Of a stretch of DNA of 64,000 bases, positions 2,745 to 47,659 are shown piece after piece. The notes below the pieces were generated by a model. That model was given only the letters and a program-made list of their open reading frames with translations, ran no database searches and was not told where the DNA came from. This DNA is from Escherichia coli (GTDB lineage Bacteria; Pseudomonadota; Gammaproteobacteria; Enterobacterales; Enterobacteriaceae), in assembly GCA_005400705.1 (NCBI GenBank), contig GCA_005400705.1_4079.1; one strand, 5' to 3'. Numbering within the stretch: position 1 is the stretch's first letter; every line of letters starts with the position of its first letter. A program made the translations under genes and the position numbers.

Positions 2745-3710
2745 GTGAAAAAGCTTGATTTAAATACAATTGCCGAAGAAGTTCTGGATGAATGTTTTGC
2801 TAATGAAGAAGTCAACACACTAGAAGCCTTAGATTTCGTTGAAGATAAAGATGAAAATGAAGGTAAAGTACAAAGCAGTTTCAAATATAATATTACACTT
2901 AAGCGACCACCAAATGTTTCCAATGAAGATCTAATTCGTGATATTCAAGCTGGTATCAATGTAAAGAAAAACACTGAACTGTTAGTTCGTTACAATTATG
3001 GACTGATTATTGATGTAGCAAGTAAATGTACTTGTTATATCCCATTTGAAGATAAGATTTCATATGGTGTTGAGGGGTTCATGAGAGCACTAAAAACCTT
3101 TGATCTTAATAAGAATGTGAAGTTCATTACCTATGCTTCTTCTAGTATTTACATGACAGTTTATAACGAAAGTTCTGACGCTAACTATATGGTACACTTC
3201 CCACGTTATATGAGTGTTCATAAGATCAAAGTAAAAAGATTCTGCCAGGAATATATGCGTAAACATGGTGTTCGCCCAACTCCTGAAATAATCTCAGAGG
3301 GTACTGGGATTGAGATTCAGCATGTTAATAATTGTTTGTTATTTCAAAGCGAATACACTTCACTGGATGCACCATTAGACGGTGTTACAGATGGTACACT
3401 AGGTGACATTATTCATTCACCTGCTTCTGATTTTAACCTCAATGTTGATAGTATTCGTGCACCTTTACGTTATGCTATCAATGAACTGACTAACGAATTG
3501 AGTACTAAAGAACGTGAGATTATCCAGCGTGTTCATGGTCTAGGTGAATATGAACCTGAAACGCTTCGTGAGATTGCTGATAATGGTTTTGTTGATGATA
3601 ATGGAAAATATGTTAAATCCCGTTCATCAATACACCGAAAGTACAGTGAAGCTATGCAAAAGCTTAAGAAGCTAGTACTTGCAAAAGGGTACGAATACGA
3701 AGATTTCTAA
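2745..3710 (+). CDS. sigma-70 family RNA polymerase sigma factor-like protein
   Basis: 321 aa, GTG start with RBS aggaga; region-2-like YGVEGFMRALKTFDLNKNVKFITYASSSIY and region-4-like LSTKEREIIQRVHGLGEYEPETLREIADN...VKSRSSIHRKYSEAMQKLKKL. Confidence 0.65.
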   Translation: MKKLDLNTIAEEVLDECFANEEVNTLEALDFVEDKDENEGKVQSSFKYNITLKRPPNVSNEDLIRDIQAGINVKKNTELLVRYNYGLIIDVASKCTCYIPFEDKISYGVEGFMRALKTFDLNKNVKFITYASSSIYMTVYNESSDANYMVHFPRYMSVHKIKVKRFCQEYMRKHGVRPTPEIISEGTGIEIQHVNNCLLFQSEYTSLDAPLDGVTDGTLGDIIHSPASDFNLNVDSIRAPLRYAINELTNELSTKEREIIQRVHGLGEYEPETLREIADNGFVDDNGKYVKSRSSIHRKYSEAMQKLKKLVLAKGYEYEDF

Positions 3711-3717
3711 AGAAAAA

Positions 3718-3744
3718 GGGTTGGCTTATGCCAACCTTTTTTTA
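3718..3744 (+). terminator. intrinsic terminator
   Basis: gggttggc-ttat-gccaacc hairpin followed by T7 run. Confidence 0.7.
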
Positions 3745-4268
3745 TGGGATGAAGTAAAAGTTTGTGATATAATTATCTTGTACAATTCTGTTGGCATGAT
3801 ATTCATGTACCTGATCCACTCGAAAACGTAGAGGGCAGTTGAGCAGTCCGACAGTGCGAACAGCAAAAGAAACCCGTTAGATGTGGGCATAGTTTGAACC
3901 CCTCACGGCAATGCGGCTGTATAAAGAACCACGTTAGGATAGCTGGTGGTTCCTTGATAGACATATAAGGATAACACCTTACGAATTATCTAAGGGAGAG
4001 TTATCAAATTTTGTACAGGAAAGTTGCGTCCAGAATTTGAGTACTCACATTAAGTATTTGATTGCATAGATACTTAATGAAGATACACTATGTTTAAAAG
4101 TGTAGACCGTCATATGAAACTGAAGTAGAGAGAAACAGGATGACCCGCTTTCGCACTCGTTATGAGTAATCTTCAATGCAATAGCTCTGATACCATCAGC
4201 GTCAAATTTCCCTCCTTGTGGGGGGGAAGAAAAATCCCTTCCTCAAATCCCGTCAATATTAAAAGTCC
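3745..4268 (+). ncRNA. candidate structured non-coding RNA (unclassified)
   Basis: About 520 nt without ORF, locally GC-richer, nested helices e.g. gataac-a-cctta-cgaattatc-taagg-gaga-gttatc and gaaccac...gtggttc. Confidence 0.25.
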
Positions 4269-4297
4269 TTGACAGTTATTAATCATTCGCGTAGAAT
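4269..4297 (+). promoter_or_regulatory. sigma70-type promoter TTGACA-17-TAGAAT
   Basis: ttgaca 4269-4274, tagaat 4292-4297. Confidence 0.5.
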
Positions 4298-4361
4298 ACG
4301 TAGTATTAGAAGCGAACAGACATCTCTTCGAGATGGATGATTAACCATTAAGGAATATCAA

Positions 4362-4571
4362 ATGAATTCAGTAATCTTTTTAGTAGTCGCTTTCTCTGTT
4401 AATTCCGGTGTACAAATTACCCCAATGAACTCAATGAACCAATGTTTTTCTGTACGTGACAGTACTTATGATCAAGTAAACCACATGTCACTTATGACAG
4501 TTAGTAAAGAAAGTATGTGGTGTTACAATAGTAATACTAACACAAAGCTTATTGTAGGACAAACTCAATGA
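4362..4571 (+). CDS. hypothetical protein
   Basis: 69 aa ORF, RBS aagga upstream, hydrophobic N-terminus. Confidence 0.45.
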   Translation: MNSVIFLVVAFSVNSGVQITPMNSMNQCFSVRDSTYDQVNHMSLMTVSKESMWCYNSNTNTKLIVGQTQ

Positions 4572-4798: not shown

Positions 4799-5587
4799 AT
4801 GAGCACTATCGATGAACTGATTCAACGGAATTCAAAATATTACCAACCATCAGAAATTGTGGATAACATTACTAAATCTGAGTTTGGACCGAACACACGC
4901 AAACTCATTCATGTAATGTCACGTGATGGCTTTAAATGTGATTGTTGTGGTGAATCAAATGTAGTATTCACTTTACACAAGCACAGTACTAAAGAACGTT
5001 ATAAATTCAGACCTTATGTACTTAAAGGGAAACGTCTTGTACGCATGACGTTAGACCATAACGTACTGGACTGTCTTCAGGGCGGTAATGATAAAGAGAA
5101 CATGACTGCACTGTGTGAAGATTGTAACGCATTACGCCAGCATAAGTTTGCTGAATACAGTGAGTTTAAACACTGGTATCATAACGCGGATCGTTCAATC
5201 GAGCCTGACGTTAACTACTGCTTCATTGAGTACATTAAGAATGCAAAAGATACATACATTCTTAAATCAATGTCACCTATTACCGTGTTTCCTGAGAACC
5301 TATTCACTACATTAAAGAATAGTTTTATTGTAGGTGATATTGATGCATTCAAGTATTTTGACAAAGGTGCAAAACATTTTGAAATTCAATGTCTTAGTAC
5401 TGCACTATGTGAACTCATTAAAATTTACATAAAAGAGTGTTTGGGTATTGACAATGTACGTGTACCAGAGTATACTTTTTCTATTGAATTCGATTGTGAA
5501 TCAATCAAAGAGTTTGGAATTCTTTTCAATAAACAAATAGAACTTGCAATTCAAAACGAAATCAAGTACTATACTACTAACATTTAA
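4799..5587 (+). CDS. HNH-family endonuclease (homing endonuclease-like)
   Basis: 262 aa; CDCCG ... TLDHNVLDCLQGGNDKENMTALCEDCNALRQHK matches the HNH CxxC/H-N/CxxC/H pattern. Confidence 0.65.
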   Translation: MSTIDELIQRNSKYYQPSEIVDNITKSEFGPNTRKLIHVMSRDGFKCDCCGESNVVFTLHKHSTKERYKFRPYVLKGKRLVRMTLDHNVLDCLQGGNDKENMTALCEDCNALRQHKFAEYSEFKHWYHNADRSIEPDVNYCFIEYIKNAKDTYILKSMSPITVFPENLFTTLKNSFIVGDIDAFKYFDKGAKHFEIQCLSTALCELIKIYIKECLGIDNVRVPEYTFSIEFDCESIKEFGILFNKQIELAIQNEIKYYTTNI

Positions 5588-6444: not shown

Positions 6445-6532
6445 CAGTACTGAATAATAGCAGTATAATGTTTATATCAAAGGGAATGCAGTGAAAGGAA
6501 AGACAGCATAATCGTACTCGTCACTGCGTTCC
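6441..6532 (+). promoter_or_regulatory. promoter (TTGACA-17-TATAAT) followed by long 5' stem-loop
   Basis: ttgaca 6441-6446, tataat 6464-6469, stem gggaatgcagtga (6482-6494) pairing tcactgcgttccc (6520-6532). Confidence 0.55.
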
Positions 6533-6562: not shown

Positions 6563-6871
6563 ATGTTTCAAACTAACACTCAAGGTTTTGTAATCATCGA
6601 TTTGAATCAAAACAGCGGTTATTGGATGAAACCTACTGACGCATGTATGCAGTTTGATTTCTTAGGTTACAGAATTAGTGTAAGTACTGGTGCTTCTGTA
6701 CTGAGAGGTGGTTGTATCGTTGAACATCTGGTAACTGATCCAGAAGGTCGTGAGTATGAAATCGCAGGTTCAGTACAAGATGCCATTATGTTTGTATGTC
6801 AGCGTGAAATGAATGGTTCGAATTCAAATGCACTGACTCATGCTCTTTCTCAAGAAGTGGAGGTTCGTTAA
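6563..6871 (+). CDS. hypothetical protein
   Basis: 102 aa ORF, RBS gaggaa upstream. Confidence 0.55.
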   Translation: MFQTNTQGFVIIDLNQNSGYWMKPTDACMQFDFLGYRISVSTGASVLRGGCIVEHLVTDPEGREYEIAGSVQDAIMFVCQREMNGSNSNALTHALSQEVEVR

Positions 6872-41416: not shown

Positions 41417-42054
41417 TTAAACACAAGTAGACAGGGGAAGCTCCTAGTGAACAACCTTTATGTACAGGCGAATTGTTAAAATTCAGCCTGGACAAATGCG
41501 ATCACTAGGATTCTCCCCAGGCTAAACCCCGTAATCATAGGTAGTCATAAGTAATCATATATAAACATTTATATGAGCACCGTAGAATCACAGAATGATT
41601 ATATATGATTCAGTACTGATTAGTATAGACAAGATTGCTCAAGAATGCACGGAAATGTGTGTGAATGATTCAGTACTGATATCCCACTAAGTAGGCAGAG
41701 GAAGTCTGCCGTACTTTTTAGTTTCCAAGCTCCTTTTCCATTTTTCAAATTACATCAAATGTAATCAAAAGTAATCACGCAATGATTAGTACTGAATTAT
41801 TACTTTCACCTTAATTACAATTACCCTTTTACCCTTCGGGGTAAAATTCCATTACCCCTTGAGGCTCCAGCAAAAAGTTGGTTAGTACTCCATCCTAAAT
41901 CTCGATCCTAAAAATTTTGGAGTACCTATGAAATAAAAGTTGGATCTTCGAAAGTTGAAATTTACGTTGGGACGTTTATGATTTGTGGGATATAATGATG
42001 TTTGTAGTCGGGTAGTTCTCAAGAATATCAGTACTGAATGATGAAAGAAAGCTA

Positions 42055-42082
42055 TTGACTTTATGATTCAGTACTGTATAAT
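42055..42082 (+). promoter_or_regulatory. orphan promoter TTGACT-16-TATAAT with no ORF downstream
   Basis: ttgact 42055-42060, tataat 42077-42082, followed by gttttacat as in the PeSL-type promoters. Confidence 0.5.
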
Positions 42083-42088
42083 GTTTTA

Positions 42089-42200
42089 CATAGAGAGATG
42101 AGTTGCCGCAAACAATTCATTCACTCTACTTCCTGTCGTGAGACAGTACAGAAAGATAGTTCCTCCTATGGGTGGTACATCTTTTAGAACCTCTTTTTTC
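42089..42200 (+). ncRNA. candidate small RNA
   Basis: About 110 nt from the orphan promoter to the T-run ctcttttttc at 42191-42200, no ORF. Confidence 0.25.
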
Positions 42201-42410
42201 GTAATATGAACAGTACTGATATTAACAGAATGGTGTCAGTACTGATTTTAATTTAATGCATTATGCCACCAGCACAAGCTGGTGGATTCCCTCTAACAGT
42301 ATTCAGTACTACATGATGGTCTTCATCCTCCTAGGGTAACATAGTGAGGGCTATGATGGCAGTACTGAATACTCCCTTTCAAAAGATAGATCTATGGTAT
42401 AGTACTGACG

Positions 42411-42600
42411 GATTTTGGGCGTAGTTACCCTGGATGGATTTTGGACGTAGATATGTCTAGCCCTCCAGAAGTCTGGAAGTAAAGATGGCTATCCATCTAG
42501 ACGGCTAAACGGCTAGATTTCTGGATGGCTGGATGGCTAGACGTTTGGACGGCTAAACGGCTAGATGGTTACACGTCTGGAAGTATAGACGGCTAAATCA
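42411..42600. repeat. iteron-like direct repeats
   Basis: gacggctaaacggctagat twice (42500-42518, 42548-42566); ggatggct three times; gtctggaagta twice; gattttgg(g/a)cgtag twice. Confidence 0.6.
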
Positions 42601-43337
42601 AAATTTTATTTTGTTTTTTCCAATAGTTCCCCTACCGCGTGGGGATAGTTTCCCCGCAGTATCTGGAGTTAGATTTTTCTGAATCTGGAATCATTATCTT
42701 ATAAACTGGGGGCAATGTCAACCGCCTGGACGGATATTTTTAAAAATTTTTTCAGTACTGAATTTTGGGCGTAACTATGCACCCGGTGGGCTTGAGTCTT
42801 TCTCGACTTGATGGAACTATTATACAGTACTGGAAAAATAAAGCAATACCCTGGAAGCAAAAAAGTTTTAATTAATTTGCTTGCTATCCTGGGCCGGACT
42901 ATGGTACTATATTTCAGTACTGAGAAAGTGCGTTTACCTGCTAGGGTGCGGGAGTGTATCCTTTTTTTATATCTTGAATTTTGGGCGTAATTCCGCACCC
43001 TCTGGGGTTTCCGCTTTCTCGCGTCTATGTAGTAATTATACGCTTTTTCAGGATCAAGTCAATACCTAAAAACAAAATAATTGAAAATAATTTAACGCGT
43101 TTAAACGGCCCGTAAAGCCCTGGAATGATTGGAATGGTGCAAATGTATAGCTTAGGTGTATTAATGCGTTAGAATGCGTCTGAGGCCGTTTTACGGGGTA
43201 TAGGGATGATTTGGTGGATTGATTCAGTACTGAATGATAGTACTACTATATAGAAAGATAGTTCCCCTGAATGGTTGCAGTACTGAATGATAGTTCCCCT
43301 ATATAGAAAGAAAACTATTTTAAAAGTATTTGTAGAA

Positions 43338-43402
43338 AGTACTTGCAAACTAAGTTTAACGGCGTATAATGTTTTACATCGAGAGCGGGAACACTTCCCG
43401 CT
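43338..43402 (+). promoter_or_regulatory. PeSL-like cassette (promoter AGTACTTGCAAAC..TATAAT, stem-loop GCGGGAA-CAC-TTCCCGC)
   Basis: tataat 43365-43370 within gtataatgttttacatc; hairpin 43385-43401. Confidence 0.6.
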
Positions 43403-43425
43403 ACATATTACGAGAGATTAAAACG

Positions 43426-43788
43426 ATGGCGACTCAAATCACTAAAATTATTGCTAACCTGGTTAACTTTCGCGACGAGATGAAAGATCTTCCGGCAGAA
43501 ACGGTAAAAATTCACATTTCAGCTTATCGGGAACTTATTGCAATGTTACCGCTTAAGCGTGAACAATACGCCGCGACCGTGATGCTTGATGCGATGATCC
43601 ATAAGATGATCGCCAGTGATTTAACGATGGTTTATCAGTATATGGGCGAAAATTTCGCGGTGTATAGTAAACCAGTACCAGGAATGGAAAGTACAGAAGT
43701 ATTACACGGTTTAAATTTAAAACAAGATGCATGGGATAATATGCCTCGTTTCCTGGTATGGGCTGACAGTGGCAAGATTTACGAATAA
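43426..43788 (+). CDS. hypothetical protein
   Basis: 120 aa from ATG 43426 downstream of the cassette hairpin; ORF-track start 43369 is the ATG inside tataATGtttt. Confidence 0.55.
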   Translation: MATQITKIIANLVNFRDEMKDLPAETVKIHISAYRELIAMLPLKREQYAATVMLDAMIHKMIASDLTMVYQYMGENFAVYSKPVPGMESTEVLHGLNLKQDAWDNMPRFLVWADSGKIYE

Positions 43789-43797
43789 GTTTTAGAA

Positions 43798-43860
43798 AGT
43801 ACTTGCAAACTAAGTTTAAAAGCGTATAATGTTTTACATCAGGTGGGGAATAGTTCCCCA
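43798..43860 (+). promoter_or_regulatory. PeSL-like cassette
   Basis: agtacttgcaaactaagtttaaaagcgtataat then hairpin tggggaa-tag-ttcccca 43844-43860. Confidence 0.6.
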
Positions 43861-43881
43861 CTATATAAGAGGATTAAAAAA

Positions 43882-44121
43882 ATGGCTAAATCAAAAATGT
43901 TCTTAGGTCACAAAAACAAAACTCATTGGAATGTAAGCCTTTGGATTAATAACGATGAGTCATTGTACCGGTTGGCCCAGGACTTTATTAACGATAGCAC
44001 TAATCGCAATGATGCGGCCCGTCATATGATGTTATTTTTAGAACAGACTGGACAAGATAAAACACCGGACGGATTCAAATATAGCACTACTGCGATCCGT
44101 GCGGCGATGGTTGGAATGTAA
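43882..44121 (+). CDS. hypothetical protein
   Basis: 79 aa from ATG 43882, RBS gagga. Confidence 0.55.
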   Translation: MAKSKMFLGHKNKTHWNVSLWINNDESLYRLAQDFINDSTNRNDAARHMMLFLEQTGQDKTPDGFKYSTTAIRAAMVGM

Positions 44122-44136
44122 TAGAATATATTTAAA

Positions 44137-44170
44137 GTACTATCGCAAAAAATGATAGTACTTTATAATA
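44137..44170 (+). promoter_or_regulatory. promoter with upstream palindrome AGTACTATC...GATAGTACT
   Basis: Palindrome 44137-44163, tataat 44165-44170; same design at 55759-55794. Confidence 0.5.
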
Positions 44171-44206
44171 GTGTTTTATTCATACACAAACGATAAGGGC
44201 AACAGC

Positions 44207-44473
44207 ATGAATATTAAGTATTTTGCGACGCGTGAACAAGCTCGGATCGCCGCACGCCAGGACGGGGCAACGTTTAAAGATATGGGCGTACAATCGGAAC
44301 GTGGTAAACGTTGGGCCATTATAAAGCGTAGTACCGCCAGATCATTACAGTACTGGTTAGCGGCGTTAAAAAGTCCTGATAGTGTATCGCGTCGAGTGGT
44401 AGAAATAAAGCTCGACCGAAAGGGCAACCGCGTGACCGTGTACCGTACTAAAAAGATAGCAGTACTTGAATAA
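44207..44473 (+). CDS. hypothetical protein (paralog of 55839 product)
   Basis: 88 aa; FATREQARIAARQDGATFKDMG ... DRKGNRVTVY shared with the 55839-56234 product. Confidence 0.55.
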   Translation: MNIKYFATREQARIAARQDGATFKDMGVQSERGKRWAIIKRSTARSLQYWLAALKSPDSVSRRVVEIKLDRKGNRVTVYRTKKIAVLE

Positions 44474-44474
44474 A

Positions 44475-44538
44475 AGTACTTGCATACTATGTTTAAAGGC
44501 GTATAATGTTTTACATCGAGAGCGGGAACACTTCCCGC
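44475..44538 (+). promoter_or_regulatory. PeSL-like cassette
   Basis: aaagtacttgcatactatgtttaaaggcgtataat, hairpin gcgggaacacttcccgc 44522-44538. Confidence 0.6.
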
Positions 44539-44559
44539 CTATAACCTGGAGTAATAAAA

Positions 44560-44790
44560 ATGACTAATATGTATATGACTGAAGTTAAAACTGTAAAAGA
44601 TACTACCACGAATAAAACTACTTACTTACAGCGGATCTGTGGTGTCTGGCAACGTATCAGCAAAATAAAGTACTATAAATTGACATCACATGCTAACCGT
44701 TCGGATTCATTCAGTACTGAAATAAAAGGTAATAAAGTACACCAATACGGCACTTATTATTATTATAGCCTGGATGCGATTGCAGTATAA
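44560..44790 (+). CDS. hypothetical protein
   Basis: 76 aa, RBS ggag. Confidence 0.55.
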   Translation: MTNMYMTEVKTVKDTTTNKTTYLQRICGVWQRISKIKYYKLTSHANRSDSFSTEIKGNKVHQYGTYYYYSLDAIAV

Positions 44791-44820
44791 GCAGTTTACA
44801 AATCTTTACAATTGCCGGTA

Positions 44821-44849
44821 TTGACTTATTTTGTCAGTACTGGCATAAT
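44821..44849 (+). promoter_or_regulatory. promoter TTGACT-17-CATAAT (AGTACTGG class)
   Basis: ttgact 44821-44826, agtactggcataat. Confidence 0.45.
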
Positions 44850-45032
44850 GTATTCATTGGCAGATAAGCCGTAGCCCATAGGGTGCGGGAGTGTATCTAT
44901 AGAAAAAGTAGTTTATTACAGTTACAATTGTGCACCCGGTGGGTTAGCTGTTGTCATGGGGTATATTATACCAGTACTGGATAGTGCTGTCAATACCTTT
45001 TTACTATTCAGTACTGAAAACTATTTTTAAAA

Positions 45033-45065
45033 AGTACTTGCAAACTATGTTTAAAGGCGTATAAT
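45033..45065 (+). promoter_or_regulatory. PeSL-type promoter driving the structured element
   Basis: agtacttgcaaactatgtttaaaggcgtataat. Confidence 0.55.
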
Positions 45066-45150
45066 GTTTTACATCAGGACGGGGAACGAAATAAGTAACT
45101 TCCCGTTAAGTAGCCCAGGAGTAAGGCACACGAAAAACTCCCCTGATAAA
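45066..45150 (+). ncRNA. candidate structured small RNA, copy A (identical copy at 54907-54990)
   Basis: No ORF; closing helix atcagg...cctgat and inner hairpin acgggga...ttcccgt; about 100 nt identical in both copies. Confidence 0.35.
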
Positions 45151-45155
45151 ATAGT

Positions 45156-45183
45156 TTGACAAATGTTTTTAAAAGCGTATAAT
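45156..45183 (+). promoter_or_regulatory. sigma70-type promoter TTGACA-16-TATAAT
   Basis: ttgaca 45156-45161, tataat 45178-45183. Confidence 0.55.
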
Positions 45184-45215
45184 ACTTACATCAACTACTG
45201 AATGAGGGTTACAAA

Positions 45216-45827
45216 ATGAAAACTATCACTACTACTACTTTCGTTATGGCTTTTTCTGAATTGAACGCAGAACAACAAACGTCAGCTATCGAACTGGTTC
45301 GGGATCGGGAACGTTCAAGCGGTGATGATTTCTTTTCTGAGTCAGTGATCGAGTACTATAAAGAAACAGTACTACCAGAATATGGAATTGATGACGCTGA
45401 TTTGCAATTCAGTGGTTTTTGGTCGCAGGGTGACGGTGCATCAATCAGTACTGACCACGTTGACGCTGTGAAGTTTTTACGCAAGATTAAAGCATTAACT
45501 AAGTATCGTTCTATCCGTCACCTGCTGAATGAAGATGATTTGGCGATGAGTGTAAAGCGTTCTCACTCCCACTACTCGCATGAAAACACTGTAAGCGGGT
45601 ACATTGAATCGGGGTACACTGATTTAACCGCAAAACAAGAAACGTTAGTTAATGAGCTTGAGGAACTACTCACTGAAACTATTCGTGAATTATCCCGCAA
45701 GTTGTACCGTGATTTAGAGAATGCATATGAGGATCAATTCACTACTGAAAACATTACGGCACTGATTGAGGGTAACGAATATCAATTCAATGTTATTGAT
45801 GGCGTAGTAGAATCTATCGAATATTAA
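45216..45827 (+). CDS. hypothetical acidic protein
   Basis: 203 aa, RBS gagggt. Confidence 0.6.
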   Translation: MKTITTTTFVMAFSELNAEQQTSAIELVRDRERSSGDDFFSESVIEYYKETVLPEYGIDDADLQFSGFWSQGDGASISTDHVDAVKFLRKIKALTKYRSIRHLLNEDDLAMSVKRSHSHYSHENTVSGYIESGYTDLTAKQETLVNELEELLTETIRELSRKLYRDLENAYEDQFTTENITALIEGNEYQFNVIDGVVESIEY

Positions 45828-45883
45828 TTCAGTACTGAATCAATGGCGGGAGTGGTTCCCGCCTATAACCAGGAGTAAGCATC

Positions 45884-46117
45884 ATGATCGAACAAATTCA
45901 AACGACCACAAGCCGGAGCGGAACGAAAGTACATTACATCGCTGATACTGATAAAGGTGTACCCTATTGTGCTGTACACGTAAATACTGACGGTGACTAT
46001 TGGTTAACTGTATACGGGCGTTACTCGTTTGCTTTTAGTGCACATTGTAAGATCCTGGAAGTAGTGAAGCCTACCGGTAAGAATATCACGCCGGGAAAAT
46101 GTTTTACTAAGCACTAA
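45884..46117 (+). CDS. hypothetical protein (paralog of 47039 product)
   Basis: 77 aa; GVPYCAVHVNT.G.YW.TVYG.YSF ... PTGKNIT shared with 47039. Confidence 0.6.
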   Translation: MIEQIQTTTSRSGTKVHYIADTDKGVPYCAVHVNTDGDYWLTVYGRYSFAFSAHCKILEVVKPTGKNITPGKCFTKH

Positions 46118-46118
46118 A

Positions 46119-46185
46119 AAGTACTTGCATACTAAGTTTAAAAGCGTATAATACTTTATATCGAGGCGGGGGAATGGTTCCCGCC
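46119..46185 (+). promoter_or_regulatory. PeSL-like cassette
   Basis: aaagtacttgcatactaagtttaaaagcgtataat, hairpin ggcggggg-aatgg-ttcccgcc. Confidence 0.6.
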
Positions 46186-46203
46186 TTTACTGAGGATTAT
46201 CTA

Positions 46204-46491
46204 ATGAGCAAAGTAATTAACTATACAGTACTAAGCAAGTCATTATCTATTAGCCAGTGCACCGATGGTTTTTGGCTGTACGATGAAACGCGTGGCATGA
46301 ATTTAGCTATGCGGGAGAAAACTGCTGAGGCGGCGTATTTACAAGCCCTGGAATACTACCAGGAACGTTTAAAGGAAGTAGAAAACAATTATCAAAATTT
46401 AAAAGAGAAAGTAGATAATTTCGTTTGTCAATTCGTTGACGATGACGAGGAAGACGGGCACTACTGCAACCGTTGCGGATCTTACAATTAA
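46204..46491 (+). CDS. hypothetical protein
   Basis: 95 aa from ATG 46204; C-terminal CNRCGSYN. Confidence 0.5.
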   Translation: MSKVINYTVLSKSLSISQCTDGFWLYDETRGMNLAMREKTAEAAYLQALEYYQERLKEVENNYQNLKEKVDNFVCQFVDDDEEDGHYCNRCGSYN

Positions 46492-46554
46492 GTACTTGCA
46501 ATTAGTTTTCAGTACTGTATAATGGTTTACATCAAAGGGAGAAATGGTTCTCCC
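46491..46554 (+). promoter_or_regulatory. PeSL-like cassette
   Basis: agtacttgcaattagttttcagtactgtataat, hairpin gggaga-aatggt-tctccc. Confidence 0.6.
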
Positions 46555-46573
46555 TGGTAATGAGGAAAATAAA

Positions 46574-46795
46574 ATGGCTAATATCACTACTCTTTCCCAA
46601 CTGGAAGCACTGGTTAAATCTATGCGGGAACATGCCGACAAAATCGGCGTACAAGATCCAGCCGTTTGCTTCTGCGACGAATTGAATGATGATACCCTGG
46701 TAATAGCAGAAGTCCAGGACGTTTCTAACTATTCCTCGCGTTACACTGGCGGCGTAGCAAATAAAGGTGACTTCTGTTTATACCTTACAAAATAA
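46574..46795 (+). CDS. hypothetical protein
   Basis: 73 aa from ATG 46574, RBS gagga. Confidence 0.55.
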   Translation: MANITTLSQLEALVKSMREHADKIGVQDPAVCFCDELNDDTLVIAEVQDVSNYSSRYTGGVANKGDFCLYLTK

Positions 46796-46798
46796 CAA

Positions 46799-46836
46799 CG
46801 CGGGGAGATAATAACTCCCCGTTACTTTTTCAGTAC
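46799..46836 (+). terminator. intrinsic terminator
   Basis: cgcggggag-ataataa-ctccccg then ttacttttt. Confidence 0.6.
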
Positions 46837-46958
46837 TGAATCATTTAATAGACGGATCTCGGCACCCGGTGGGTTAGTGACTGTTTCGTCTTGATGTAGT
46901 AATTATGCCAGTACTGGATGCACTTGTCAACAATTATTTTTCAAATACTTTTTATTAA

Positions 46959-47017
46959 AATACTTGCAATTAGTTTTTAAACGCGTATAATGTTTTGCAT
47001 AGGGGGAGCGGTTCCCC
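46959..47017 (+). promoter_or_regulatory. PeSL-like cassette
   Basis: tacttgcaattagtttttaaacgcgtataat, hairpin gggga-gcggt-tcccc. Confidence 0.55.
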
Positions 47018-47038
47018 TGGTAACTAAGGAATAATAAA

Positions 47039-47275
47039 ATGCTTGAACAAATCAAATCAACGTCTTCGAATGTAACGGGAACGGTAGCACACTTTACTAG
47101 TGATGAATCGCGGGGCGTTCCCTATTGTGCTGTACATGTAAACACTGAGGGTAACTACTGGTTTACGGTTTACGGTTCATATTCATTTGGACGGCCAGGG
47201 CATCAAAAAATTCTGGATAAAGTACAGCCAACGGGTAAAAATATCACTGCTGAAATGTTTTATAAAAAATCATAA
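47039..47275 (+). CDS. hypothetical protein (paralog of 45884 product)
   Basis: 78 aa, RBS aagga. Confidence 0.6.
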   Translation: MLEQIKSTSSNVTGTVAHFTSDESRGVPYCAVHVNTEGNYWFTVYGSYSFGRPGHQKILDKVQPTGKNITAEMFYKKS

Positions 47276-47276
47276 A

Positions 47277-47339
47277 GTACTTGCAATTAGTTTTTAGTAC
47301 TGTATAATATTTTACATCGCAAGGGGGAGCGGTTCCCCC
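47277..47339 (+). promoter_or_regulatory. PeSL-like cassette
   Basis: aagtacttgcaattagtttttagtactgtataat, hairpin ggggga-gcggt-tccccc. Confidence 0.6.
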
Positions 47340-47359
47340 TGGTAACTAAGGATAATCAA

Positions 47360-47659
47360 ATGAAAATTGCAATCATCGCCCTGGCTTTATCTGTTTCCTC
47401 TTTCGCTGTTAATGCGTCATTAGATGTAAGTAGTGAAAAATTCATTCAGTGCACTGTTGCAATGACCGATGAAAGTACTGGCGAGATTGTTTTAAAGGAT
47501 TTAGAGATCCAGCCCGAAGCATTTAAAAACGGGCCGTTCCATGAAGAAGACGAAAAAGGTAGCACGACAATTTATTACGATGCAAGTACTAAACGCGGTT
47601 CGGTCACTGTTATGGATACTGAGAAAGTAACTCATACTGGCGTTATTAATTGCCGTTGA
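47360..47659 (+). CDS. secreted protein (signal peptide)
   Basis: 99 aa, signal peptide MKIAIIALALSVSSFAVNA. Confidence 0.55.
   Translation: MKIAIIALALSVSSFAVNASLDVSSEKFIQCTVAMTDESTGEIVLKDLEIQPEAFKNGPFHEEDEKGSTTIYYDASTKRGSVTVMDTEKVTHTGVINCR

Follow-up and report, generated by a model that had tools for sequence, protein, structure and literature searches.

A structured non-coding RNA of at least 475 nt without an Rfam relative, present in several copies in Rak2-like jumbo phages and in single copies in enterobacterial chromosomal islands

The DNA analysed here, a stretch of 64,000 nt called the window below, carries a structured non-coding RNA gene of at least 475 nt on its + strand. The RNA belongs to a family without an Rfam relative. 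Its conserved fold comprises at least 14 helices and two pseudoknots, one a loop-to-strand pairing (PK1) and the other of the H-type (PK2). The main result is its distribution, which is multi-copy, crosses genera and extends to chromosomal islands: each Rak2-like jumbo phage has 3-5 diverged paralogs, the RNA core being present in 3-5 places per genome in 71 phage records whose hosts belong to nine genera (copies from different genera are about 70% identical, and most lack annotation), and single copies occur in small integrative islands of Serratia, Enterobacter, Silvania, Buttiauxella and E. coli. The window itself derives from an Asteriusvirus (PBECO4/121Q-like) jumbo coliphage and is 97-100% identical to PBECO4 and 121Q. 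The RNA gene and its flanking features are as follows.

2745..3710, + strand: gene for a phage RpoD-like sigma factor, upstream neighbour outside the RNA (Pfam Sigma70_r2/r3/r4; 121Q gene 167)
3717..3745, + strand: intrinsic terminator of the sigma gene, GGTTGGC-TTAT-GCCAACC followed by a T-run (sequence and terminator scan; stem 3719-3736, T-run to 3743)
3763..3773, + strand: putative extended -10 promoter of the RNA, TGTGATATAAT (TG 3765-3766, TATAAT 3768-3773; inferred transcription start at about 3780-3782)
about 3781..4255, + strand: structured non-coding RNA gene, minimum extent (nhmmer/covariance-model match, covariation, strand test)
4269..4297, + strand: sigma-70 promoter of the next transcription unit, outside the RNA (TTGACA 4269-4274, 17 nt, TAGAAT 4292-4297; 11 of 12 matches in the promoter scan)
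4286..4316, + strand: downstream hairpin with a C(GUA)G triloop, the window version of a module found 3' of the RNA in most copies (sequence; survey of 47 copies)
4799..5587, + strand: HNH endonuclease gene, a loose neighbour of the RNA and paralog of 121Q gene 513 (Pfam HNH match of gene 513)

An earlier note on this DNA had described an ORF-less, GC-richer and highly structured segment between the sigma-gene terminator and the next promoter. Its placement was confirmed, and all ORFs that overlap the RNA segment are of 54 aa or less. The difference in composition was also found: the G+C content of 3781-4255 is 41.7%, with a local maximum of 46%, whereas the window as a whole has 35.7% and the genes on either side have 35.1% and 33.9%. 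The region is without annotation in 121Q, PBECO4 and most relatives. Part of the RNA is labelled repeat_region in one record, and short hypothetical ORFs are called over it in some automatic annotations.

The family matches the window at 3781..4255 with 100 bits (E 1.3e-20) in the nhmmer/covariance-model search; blastn, nhmmer and the covariance model found no second copy within the window. A total of 69 distinct full-length copies were collected and reduced to 47 clusters at ≤95% identity. The structure statistics refer to the named fold on these 47 sequences, with 76 pairs and 3452 pair cells, and were compared with slid controls and 500 shuffles. Standard pairs occupy 96.2% of the pair cells versus 37-46% in the slid controls. 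Compensatory changes were observed at 55 of the 76 pairs, and double changes in 715 cells versus 75-105 in the slid controls. The covariation score is 0.573 (0.08-0.11 in controls), and none of the 500 shuffles reached the observed values. RNAalifold reported compensatory changes at 47 of 74 pairs. The family has stronger covariation support than many accepted families. Single-sequence folding energies were uninformative, with MFE z-scores of -1.3 (+ strand) and -1.5 (- strand) that are not above chance; the segment is thus highly structured as judged by covariation, and not by thermodynamics alone. Invariant positions number 96 of 452, many of them in loops and junctions. G-U cells outnumber A-C cells by 331 to 29 (11:1, a G-U share of about 10%), and the RNA is therefore the + strand. 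No coding signal was seen across the 47 homologs, which show neither a clear 3-base periodicity nor a conserved frame; in 537 of 626 indel runs the length is not divisible by 3.

The elements of the fold, all on the + strand, are listed here.

3783..3807, + strand: 5' leader with a conserved CAAUYCUGNUUGGC box and a variable hairpin P0, 3795-3799/3803-3807 (5' extensions of 44 homologs aligned)
3819..3833, + strand: hairpin P1, 3819-3821/3831-3833, with an invariant GAAAA loop (3 of 3 pairs covarying)
3843..3857, + strand: hairpin P2, 3843-3845/3855-3857 (100% of cells paired; 2 of 3 pairs covarying)
3860..3920, + strand: P3, 3860-3864/3916-3920, around P4 (100% of cells paired; 3 covarying pairs)
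within P3, + strand: P4, 3874-3877/3905-3908, around a variable insert (99.5% of cells paired; 1 covarying pair)
3926..3952, + strand: hairpin P5, gaaccac/gtggttc, 3926-3932/3946-3952 (5-bp core, 5 of 5 pairs covarying)
3966..3981, + strand: hairpin P6, UAAG/CUUA (central pair AU in 30, GC in 14 and GU in 3)
3998..4046, + strand: P7, 3998-4001/4043-4046, around P7a (4 of 4 pairs covarying)
within P7, + strand: modular hairpin P7a, 4007-4013/4031-4037 (pairing weaker in the MAFFT alignment used)
4048..4079, + strand: P8, 13-bp hairpin whose 6-nt loop, 4061-4066, takes part in PK1 (12 of 13 pairs covarying)
4061..4182, + strand: PK1, P8 loop AUUGCA 4061-4066 with UGCAAU 4177-4182 (6 of 6 pairs covarying; 99.6% of cells paired)
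4083..4105, + strand: hairpin P9 (4 of 5 pairs covarying)
4109..4152, + strand: PK2, H-type, GUCAU 4109-4113/AUGAC 4140-4144 crossing GAGAG 4128-4132/CUUUC 4148-4152
4121..4175, + strand: P10, 4121-4125/4171-4175, around P11 (5 of 5 pairs covarying)
within P10, + strand: P11, 4155-4157/4165-4167, with a variable tip (3 of 3 pairs covarying)
4189..4203, + strand: tentative hairpin P13, GAYG...CGUC with loop CYAYCA (by eye, then counted)
4208..4230, + strand: P12, GC-rich terminal hairpin of a C-run and a G-run, no T-run after it (4 of 5 tested pairs passed; 96% of cells paired)
4245..4255, + strand: 3' box AAAUCCCGUCA, kept in all copies

The P5 helix, which the earlier note had seen enclosing a Chi octamer, is real, and in copies B, C and D of 121Q it reads GAACUC/GAGUUC. 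The octamer, GCTGGTGG at 3942-3949 of the window copy, is part of the P5 loop and part of its 3' strand. Two other helices proposed there did not hold. The cctta/taagg helix has uncompensated changes in its 5' strand (14 and 7 C-A cells), and CCUUA covaries instead with the UAAG at 3966-3969; the gataac/gttatc helix is not conserved. The P7a loop has the consensus UACAAUAUAGAUCCGUC in most copies and UACAGGAAAGUUGCGUC in the window copy, and the P7a module is found again at a second insertion site in other copies. Both helices of PK2 have 100% of their cells paired, with 3 and 1 covarying pairs, and the knot contains the motif UAGnnAGAAACnGnnnnACCCGCUUnCG, invariant in 47 of 47 homologs. Variation in P13 is mainly C-G to U-G, with GACG/CGUC replaced by UUCG/CGAA in a divergent subfamily. 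The 3' box and the CGUCA of P13 change together in L056 and in the divergent subfamily. The changes in P12 are one-sided (C-G to U-G) and thus consistent with an RNA on the + strand. No helix closing the 5' leader onto the 3' box was found in the MAFFT alignment.

The RNA appears to have its own promoter of the extended -10 type (TGnTATAAT). Of the 47 homologs, 33 have a TGnTAnnnT motif upstream of the RNA, at a similar aligned distance in most. Given such a promoter, the RNA would be synthesized early by the host sigma-70 RNA polymerase, in the first minutes of infection and from several loci at once; for the island copies, constitutive synthesis would be expected. The candidate regulatory RNA of the earlier note was right in kind, since the segment encodes a heavily covarying structured RNA that is probably transcribed independently. 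No intrinsic terminator was found downstream of the RNA in the window copy, so transcription could continue into the downstream genes. Between the conserved core and the last hairpin, about half of the copies have a U-run hairpin that resembles a terminator. A weak terminator-like hairpin is found inside the 3' part of many copies other than the window copy. A conserved module of an AT-rich spacer and a hairpin follows the RNA in phages and islands alike, and the stems of this hairpin are almost purely Watson-Crick (148 WC, 3 GU, 1 AC), the pattern that a structure acting as DNA would give.

The genome of 121Q contains four diverged paralogs (A-D), all on the + strand and all in unannotated intergenic gaps; copy C is oriented opposite to the local genes. 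Paralogs within one genome are 60-85% identical, which we read as a sign of age. Copies in the same gene neighbourhood were found across genera at two or more sites: the endonuclease VII/baseplate-hub site carries a copy in both 121Q and 7t3, and the methyltransferase site carries one in both 121Q and XbC2. The RNA core is 96-100% identical and the flanks 86-98%, and the downstream genes vary among copies. Scans with invariant motifs gave 30 true loci among 39 matches in IMG/VR, together with 8 genome and 69 metagenome loci, and all true loci were confirmed by nhmmer. Nine IMG/VR loci that matched the first, shorter motif were rejected as chance matches in coding DNA. No copies were found in other phages, outside the Rak2-like group, and the 735-nt query in sensitive mode had no match in 72,556 PLSDB plasmids.

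One island has a module of about 735 nt, flanks included, in common with phage XaC1. The island copies that were checked converge on a CI-like repressor gene. Comparison of the island proteins with Pfam, PHROGs, NCBIfam and PADLOC identified integrases, ParB/RepB-like proteins, a CI/Cro pair, LprI and Kiwa KwaB. The island protein searches, which included homologs of a 286-aa protein, yielded nothing that accounts for the RNA, and the islands examined contain no recognisable replication initiator gene. The 286-aa protein, of unknown function, is conserved in the CI-type islands and is also recorded in Klebsiella. Its gene is at the position at which lambdoid phages and their satellites usually keep replication genes.

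The Rfam scan that the earlier note had proposed returned no family. Rfam 15 (4227 families) at gathering thresholds gave no match in the whole window and none in five bacterial loci with homologs, and a permissive scan of 3600-4450 (E up to 10) gave terminator-driven noise only, of at most 22 bits. ARAGORN found no tRNA or tmRNA gene in the window. Full-text searches of the literature found no description of the RNA, and genome papers on relatives do not mention it. The locus combines a promoter of its own, as read from sequence, with covariation beyond controls and the lack of a coding signal.

GOLLD and ROOL are largely phage- or prophage-borne. Together with OLE and raiA they resemble the present RNA in size (several hundred nt), in their many covarying helices, pseudoknots and conserved unpaired nucleotides, and in having no obvious function. 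They differ in that none matches it in sequence or structure in Rfam 15; the present RNA is also set apart by its hosts (Enterobacteriaceae and their jumbo phages), its 3-5 diverged paralogs per genome and the absence of tRNA genes beside the copies examined. Cryo-EM work is reported to show that GOLLD and related large RNAs assemble into RNA-only multimeric complexes. Nothing points to homo-oligomers of the present RNA, because PK1 is not consistently self-complementary. The Pseudomonas jumbo phage PA5oct produces four ORF-less, + strand RNAs (ncRNA001-004) that account for up to 5% of phage reads (PMC7318152); ncRNA002, 451 nt long, contributes about 5% of the phage reads in early and mid infection (PMC7318152). 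PA5oct is a distant relative of the Rak2-like phages and its ncRNAs are of similar size, so phages of the wider group do make abundant long ncRNAs; no structure or family has been described for them, unlike the RNA reported here. Neither nhmmer at maximum sensitivity nor the core covariance model (133 conserved positions) found a homolog in PA5oct 7-24 kb, the part that holds ncRNA001 and ncRNA002. The pRNA of phi29 is likewise phage-encoded and structured, with a covarying loop-to-strand pairing. In phi29 pRNA the loop pairing is intermolecular. For PK1 an intramolecular pairing is the simpler reading, since the loop of each paralog matches its own downstream strand; moreover, the present RNA is about three times larger, has no homology to pRNA, and has a promoter type that suggests early rather than late expression.

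In the preferred reading, the locus is an early gene for a trans-acting folded RNA. The RNA would act through its three-dimensional shape, and a host or phage protein is its likeliest target, for which it would be a high-affinity partner, a scaffold or a decoy. This reading excludes roles as the leader of an mRNA, as an sRNA that works by base pairing and as a DNA site, and has the island copies exploit or imitate the interaction of the phage RNA. It seems to us about evenly poised between right and wrong. A leader role is disfavoured because copy C opposes the local genes and the island copies checked converge on a CI-like repressor gene. Against the preferred reading, the old paralogs (60-85%) and shared gene neighbourhoods point to a position-dependent role in cis over simple dosage; the conserved AT-rich spacer and hairpin module and the lack of a terminator in the window copy also tell against it.

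The main rival, an unlikely one in our estimate, is an RNA-primed replication origin. ColE1 RNA II and the R-loop origins oriF/oriG of T4 have a promoter-driven folded RNA of about 500 nt without a terminator, followed by a hybrid-priming region, and T4 has several dispersed origins. By analogy, the folded RNA would be a primer that stays hybridized to the AT-rich spacer through its 3' part (G-run hairpin and 3' box), priming or helicase loading would take place at the downstream GNA-triloop hairpin of the displaced strand, the 3-5 copies would be multiple origins of the 350-kb genome, and the islands would be satellites replicated by the jumbo-phage replisome. The arrangement of the copies, multiple, dispersed, in one orientation and partly syntenic, is consistent with this, as are the putative promoter, the invariant G-run, the usual lack of a terminator beyond the 3' box, the AT-rich spacer with its conserved hairpin, the common module of an island and XaC1, the islands examined without a recognisable initiator, and the RNase H and RNase H-like exonuclease encoded by 121Q. 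However, the approximately 96 invariant nucleotides and two pseudoknots far exceed the known needs of primer RNAs, and the present RNA is far more conserved and knotted than RNA II or oriF/oriG. Since the plasmids searched gave no match, it is not an autonomous replicon of host enzymes. The cumulative GC skew of 121Q tracks gene orientation, with no origin signature at the copies. In about half of the copies the proposed hybrid region is preceded by the terminator-like hairpin, an iteron-like array at 42435-42594 of the window is a more conventional origin candidate, and in the CI-type islands the 286-aa protein occupies the usual position of replication genes. Rather improbable is a cis-acting transcription element at the head of early units, either an antiterminator like HK022 put or EAR or a very large leader like a riboswitch or T-box, with the internal terminator hairpin as expression platform. 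The RNA directly follows a promoter, a terminator is missing from the window copy, the U-run hairpin stands between core and last hairpin in about half of the copies, the two co-changing CGUCA motifs could mean alternative pairings and thus a switch, and read-through in the islands would be antisense into the CI repressor gene. Against a leader of this kind, copy C and the CI-type island copies face oppositely oriented genes, and an independent promoter close to the consensus comes directly after the window copy. Sequence is also conserved beyond the terminator-like hairpin and the downstream genes differ between copies; put and EAR are 5-7 times smaller than the RNA, which has no evident ligand or tRNA logic.

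Self-processing or catalysis, by a new ribozyme or by a degenerate group I-like intron without exons, is quite improbable, although large ribozymes are of comparable size and likewise have pseudoknots and many invariant unpaired nucleotides, and processing at the conserved 3' box is conceivable because no terminator defines the 3' end. The intron remnant considered in the earlier note was rejected: Rfam has no ribozyme or intron match at E up to 10 (Intron_gpI included, and group II likewise), the 121Q and bacterial copies are intergenic, stable and syntenic, behind their own putative promoters, and they interrupt no gene and have no exon context. Nor is the topology that of P3/P7 in group I introns, PK2 being a compact 44-nt H-type knot and PK1 pairing a loop with a strand 110 nt downstream, and no catalytic motif was recognised. 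A partnership with the HNH endonuclease, with the RNA as a guide or cofactor like HEARO or IscB omega-RNA or as a homing target beside which free-standing HNH genes settle, is very improbable. As in those systems, a large structured ncRNA is found near an HNH endonuclease gene on mobile DNA. The window gene and 121Q gene 513 are paralogs and the sole members of their family found in 121Q, both within 0.9 kb of an RNA copy (one 544 nt downstream from A, the other about 880 nt upstream from D), and the gene family does not extend beyond the phage group that also has the RNA. The association noted earlier is loose: HNH genes are missing at copies B and C and at every island copy, and the distance between gene and RNA is about 3.5-10 kb in Serratia phage BF, Pectobacterium phage CBB and GAP32. 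In the window two ORFs and a promoter separate the HNH gene from the RNA; the protein is short (262 aa) and has no RuvC domain, its paralog has only HNH in Pfam, and there is no HEARO match in Rfam. The view that there is no RNA at all, and that the segment is a decayed protein gene or a protein-bound dsDNA repeat (pac site, operator array), can draw on the repeat_region label and the automatically called ORFs and is effectively refuted. The compensatory double changes at 55 pairs and the 11:1 excess of G-U over A-C are incompatible with a duplex DNA site or a coding region; most indels are not multiples of 3, no frame is conserved, and the candidate promoter is. The protein-binding DNA site suggested earlier likewise does not fit G-U pairs at 10% on one strand only.

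A wider reading, somewhat unlikely, is that the RNA is a shared currency between the Rak2-like jumbo phages and an unrecognised class of enterobacterial islands, as either a cis-acting RNA-primed origin or hijacking module, or a phage RNP decoy counterfeited by the islands. If the origin or hijacking version were true, the islands would be the first jumbo-phage satellites, replicated or mobilised via a borrowed copy. If the decoy version were true, the RNA would be an essential component of a phage ribonucleoprotein that islands counterfeit to block infection. Under both versions the family would amount to a new class of large functional RNA, found in a system with routine genetics (E. coli with PBECO4, 121Q and phAPEC6). 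To our knowledge, bacterial and phage RNAs of more than 400 nt with a conserved, tertiary-looking architecture are rare, and every known class (RNase P RNA, tmRNA, group I/II introns, OLE, GOLLD, ROOL, HEARO) is catalytic, an RNP core or an RNA-only assembly. The family is present in culturable coliphages used in phage-therapy studies, and offers an experimental handle on the use of abundant long ncRNAs by jumbo phages, on replication start or host takeover by a 350-kb phage genome, and on the existence of jumbo-phage satellites or RNA-based antagonists. The region deserves annotation as an ncRNA gene in place of a blank or spurious short ORFs. As a minor observation, the iteron-like repeat array of the window is situated in a 2-kb non-coding stretch.

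The window matches the Asteriusvirus jumbo coliphages PBECO4, 121Q and phAPEC6 (~350 kb) at 97-100% identity. An earlier note had singled out a GC-richer segment without ORFs (3745-4268) after the sigma factor gene; its coordinates, lack of ORFs and composition were all confirmed. The segment is predicted to hold the gene of a structured non-coding RNA of at least 475 nt, with a G+C content (3781-4255) of 41.7% versus 35.7% window-wide. The features of the locus are:

2745-3710, RpoD-like sigma factor gene, the 5' landmark of the segment
3719-3736, terminator stem of the sigma gene, the 5' boundary of the segment
3763-3773, extended -10 promoter motif TGTGATATAAT
~3781-4255, + strand, predicted structured RNA
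4245-4255, 3' box of the RNA, AAAUCCCGUCA
4269-4274 (TTGACA) and 4292-4297 (TAGAAT), near-consensus sigma-70 promoter, the 3' landmark, driving two small ORFs and the HNH gene
4799-5587, HNH endonuclease gene, downstream of the sigma-70 promoter

A sensitive DNA search found 3-5 instances of the RNA core (~3810-4260) per genome across 71 phage records, with hosts in the genera Escherichia, Klebsiella, Salmonella, Erwinia, Serratia, Yersinia, Pectobacterium, Cronobacter and Xanthomonas. Core identity between genera is ~70%, and annotation is absent in nearly all records. Asteriusvirus sub-clades share 96% identity in the core, compared with 86% in the surrounding 850 nt. Copy A alone is present in the window, which holds no second copy; the whole genome of 121Q contains four, each in an annotation gap:

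90312-90796, + strand, copy A, counterpart of the window copy
192844-193316, + strand, copy B
247522-247923, + strand, copy D
from 326682, + strand, copy C

At least two sites carry a copy in a matching gene neighbourhood across genera. Copy C is flanked by endonuclease VII and baseplate hub genes in 121Q and Salmonella phage 7t3, and copy B adjoins a DNA methyltransferase gene in 121Q and Xanthomonas phage XbC2. In the phage database no full copy was found outside the Rak2-like jumbo phages, the group that includes Asteriusvirus; the sole match outside it (44 nt, E 4e-4) was taken as chance.

The alignment of the four paralogs by itself reveals stems with both sides changing in concert. Scans with family-invariant motifs yielded true loci numbering 30 in IMG/VR, 8 in genomes and 69 in metagenomes, every one of them confirmed with nhmmer; there were 69 distinct full-length sequences, in 47 clusters at ≤95% identity. 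RNAalifold predicted 74 pairs from 27 sequences, with compensatory changes at 47 of them, and a scan of all column pairs added two further pseudoknots, PK1 and PK2. The named structure (16 helices, 76 pairs) was tested on the 47-sequence alignment A2 against slid controls, in which pairing partners were displaced by 1-3 columns. Standard pairs made up 96.2% of 3452 cells, versus 37-46% in the controls; changes on both sides were seen at 55 pairs (715 cells) versus 25-29 pairs (75-105 cells), and the covariation score was 0.573 versus 0.08-0.11. None of 500 shuffles reached even one of these observed values. G-U cells far outnumber A-C cells (331 versus 29), which identifies the + strand as the one that folds and the molecule as RNA rather than duplex DNA. 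Invariant positions number 96 of 452 in the window copy, many of them within loops and junctions. The homolog alignment lacks a coding signal and any clear 3-base periodicity, and 537 of its 626 indel runs are not divisible by three. Readings of the segment as a protein gene or a DNA site are effectively excluded by the missing coding signal and the excess of G-U over A-C. The RNA is conserved and intricately folded.

The description of the segment as highly structured holds by comparison with relatives and not by folding energy, which is not above chance (z -1.3; -1.5 on the opposite strand). All three perfect helices that had been proposed occur in the window sequence. The gaaccac/gtggttc helix is hairpin P5 and has full support; the Chi octamer reported there was found at 3942-3949, where it overlaps the loop and 3' strand of P5, and 121Q copies B, C and D carry GAACUC/GAGUUC at this position. 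For the inner helix, the partner of the CCUUA strand is UAAG at 3966-3969 (P6) and not UAAGG at 3991-3995; compensation for changes in this strand is seen only in P6. The outer gataac/gttatc helix is restricted to the window copy and not shared by relatives.

The extended -10 motif is found upstream of the RNA in 33 of the 47 copies, at a similar aligned distance in most, and transcription probably starts at ~3781. A 5' leader, consisting of the box CAAUUCUGUUGGC and hairpin P0, is followed by a body of helices P1 to P13 with both pseudoknots; the 3' part comprises the GC-rich hairpin P12 and the 3' box, ending at 4255. In PK1 hairpin P8 (13 bp) pairs through its 6-nt loop with a strand 110 nt downstream, with covariation at all six pairs. 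The invariant motif UAGnnAGAAACnGnnnnACCCGCUUnCG lies within PK2, a compact H-type knot. The modular hairpin P7a, inside P7, has a 17-nt loop that is conserved across copies, and in other copies the module recurs at a second insertion site. About half of the copies, the window copy not among them, carry a short terminator-like hairpin and U-run between P13 and P12. P12, 3' of this hairpin, varies solely from C-G to U-G, which fits an RNA-level element on the + strand. Most copies have no intrinsic terminator after the 3' box. The CGUCA motifs at 4200-4204 (3' strand of P13) and 4251-4255 (3' box) co-vary: in locus L056 the two read CGACA, and in the divergent metagenome loci L081, L087, L107, L109 and L127 the two read CGAAG. 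The joint change hints that the two motifs pair in alternation with a single partner or are both sites for the same factor. 121Q copy B (L005 42776-42840) and the XbC2-type copies (loci L110, L036, L013 and L117) lack the extended -10 promoter and begin directly after an upstream terminator hairpin and T-run (TTTTTTAAT); read-through or another promoter may account for their transcription.

Full-length homologs also occur on the chromosomes of Serratia fonticola GTA-SR07 (complete), Silvania hatchlandensis, Enterobacter chinensis, Buttiauxella and Serratia sp., and in 2 of 5426 complete E. coli genomes; no copy was found among 72,556 plasmids. In every case examined the RNA lies in an AT-rich non-coding gap of ~1.3-1.4 kb within a small integrated island. 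A large serine recombinase is found in most islands (mutual identity of the recombinases just 24-28%), with the order recombinase, RNA module, convergent CI-like S24 repressor, Cro-like HTH, 286-aa protein, LprI. In S. fonticola, two tandem rof genes adjoin the island, in which the RNA is accompanied by a serine recombinase and two ParB/RepB-like genes. The E. coli LR-29-1 island (~10.7 kb, at ffs) has a tyrosine-recombinase fragment, IS3 and several DUF genes. Island RNA with flanks is 73% identical to the Xanthomonas phage XaC1 copy over 99% of a 735-nt query. The Enterobacteriaceae island family (bacterial and metagenome loci L052-L059, L066, L070, L082, L086 and L131) combines diverse integrases (large serine or tyrosine recombinases) with a CI/Cro-like switch and LprI. 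Its conserved 286-aa protein was recorded in Enterobacter, Klebsiella, Raoultella and Atlantibacter, and L066 has a Kiwa KwaB gene nearby. No phage structural genes were seen in the 8-28 kb inspected of the island loci. A divergent metagenome subfamily (L081, L087, L107, L108, L109, L116 and L127) keeps the 3' half, from P8 to the 3' box, and has a different, itself conserved 5' half. Its gene contexts are unlike those of the main family; L109, for one, has a Thg1-like gene and DUF6267.

Past an AT-rich spacer 3' of the RNA, most phage and island copies have a second conserved hairpin (window 4286-4316; L051 ~6811-6860; L057 ~3570-3600, - strand). It consists of GAAUUGA, stem, a (G/A)AACGNAGUGA loop with a C(GNA)G triloop, stem and GAAAAUUC, and frequently overlaps the -35 box of the next promoter. 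Its stem cells are 148 Watson-Crick, 3 G-U and 1 A-C. The loop motif RAACGNAGTGA has one other match in the window (6521-6531, - strand), which may be chance: ~0.2 matches are expected, and one or more turned up in 18 of 100 shuffles.

At gathering thresholds Rfam 15 matched neither the window nor any of five bacterial loci; a permissive scan returned noise only, and ARAGORN detected nothing. The ncRNAs known from RNA-seq of a relative, Pseudomonas jumbo phage PA5oct (PMC7318152), were rejected as homologs after nhmmer and a covariance model found no match to the RNA at 7-24 kb of that genome, where ncRNA001 and ncRNA002 lie. A full-text literature search, including genome papers on relatives, found no description of it. 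GOLLD and ROOL, which are largely phage- or prophage-borne, are of the same large, ornate kind but differ in sequence, structure and host. No described RNA family is related to this one, which is rated a categorically new class of RNA, with the caveat that its mechanism may prove similar to a known one. Interest lies in the unusually strong covariation and the experimentally tractable hosts and phages, and the sharing between phages and islands suggests a testable biological conflict or dependency.

The host sigma-70 polymerase would transcribe the RNA from the extended -10 promoter, a prediction that implies early expression, from several loci. The many invariant unpaired nucleotides and two pseudoknots point to function through folded shape. 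A leader role is opposed by copy C and the CI-type island copies, which face oppositely oriented genes, and by the strong separate promoter that follows the window copy; a cis antiterminator or switch is distinctly unlikely. Shape-based function and these arguments together favour an RNA that acts in trans through its fold, as binding partner, scaffold or decoy for a protein, a reading given about an even chance from sequence comparison. Island copies would then exploit or counterfeit the same RNA-protein interaction.

The main rival, an RNA-primed origin module, would account for old paralogs at conserved sites in a single orientation, the terminator absence and invariant G-run, the AT-rich spacer and nearly all-Watson-Crick C(GNA)G-triloop hairpin after the RNA in phages and islands, and the RNA in islands without a recognisable replication initiator. 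It is nevertheless unlikely, given that the RNA is absent from plasmids, that GC skew is uninformative, that copies can carry a terminator-like hairpin internally and that the window has a separate array of iteron-like repeats. A new ribozyme is highly unlikely.

The earlier note had also linked the segment to the HNH gene. The window HNH protein and 121Q gene 513 (L006 46019-46630) are paralogs (26% identity, E 7e-7) and the only two members of their family in 121Q, both within 0.9 kb of an RNA copy: the window gene is 544 nt downstream of copy A and gene 513 ~880 nt upstream of copy D. The link stands to that extent, but in other genera ~3.5-10 kb separate the gene from the RNA, and the gene is absent at copies B and C and in islands. 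The HNH family was found in Rak2-like phages only. We read the proximity either as synteny shared across the early region or as the settling of a free-standing homing endonuclease beside a highly conserved target; partnership is not obligatory, and the RNA as HNH partner or target has a very slight probability.

Elsewhere in the window, 41417-43426 is the counterpart of a 2-kb 121Q stretch without annotation (135194-137161). It includes an array of ~8-nt periodic repeats (NGANGGCT) at 42435-42594, with at least seven overlapping 48-nt units; this iteron-like array may be an origin of conventional type or a binding array for a protein. Region 43300-47400 has at least eight early-promoter cassettes, each ahead of a small ORF, in the order AAAGTACTTGCA, 17 nt, TATAAT, GTTTTACATC, GC-rich hairpin and ribosome-binding site (families D1, D2, D6 and D7); their promoter type is unlike that of the RNA, which has an extended -10. 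On the + strand the window has 12 sites of the E. coli Chi octamer GCTGGTGG (3942, 20280, 42278, 48756, 52480, 52990, 53941, 54841, 56922, 58514, 60092 and 60314) and on the - strand two, against an expectation of ~0.2 per strand estimated from base composition. The contexts of these sites are mutually unrelated, and the co-oriented sites look to be under selection, possibly for protection from RecBCD.
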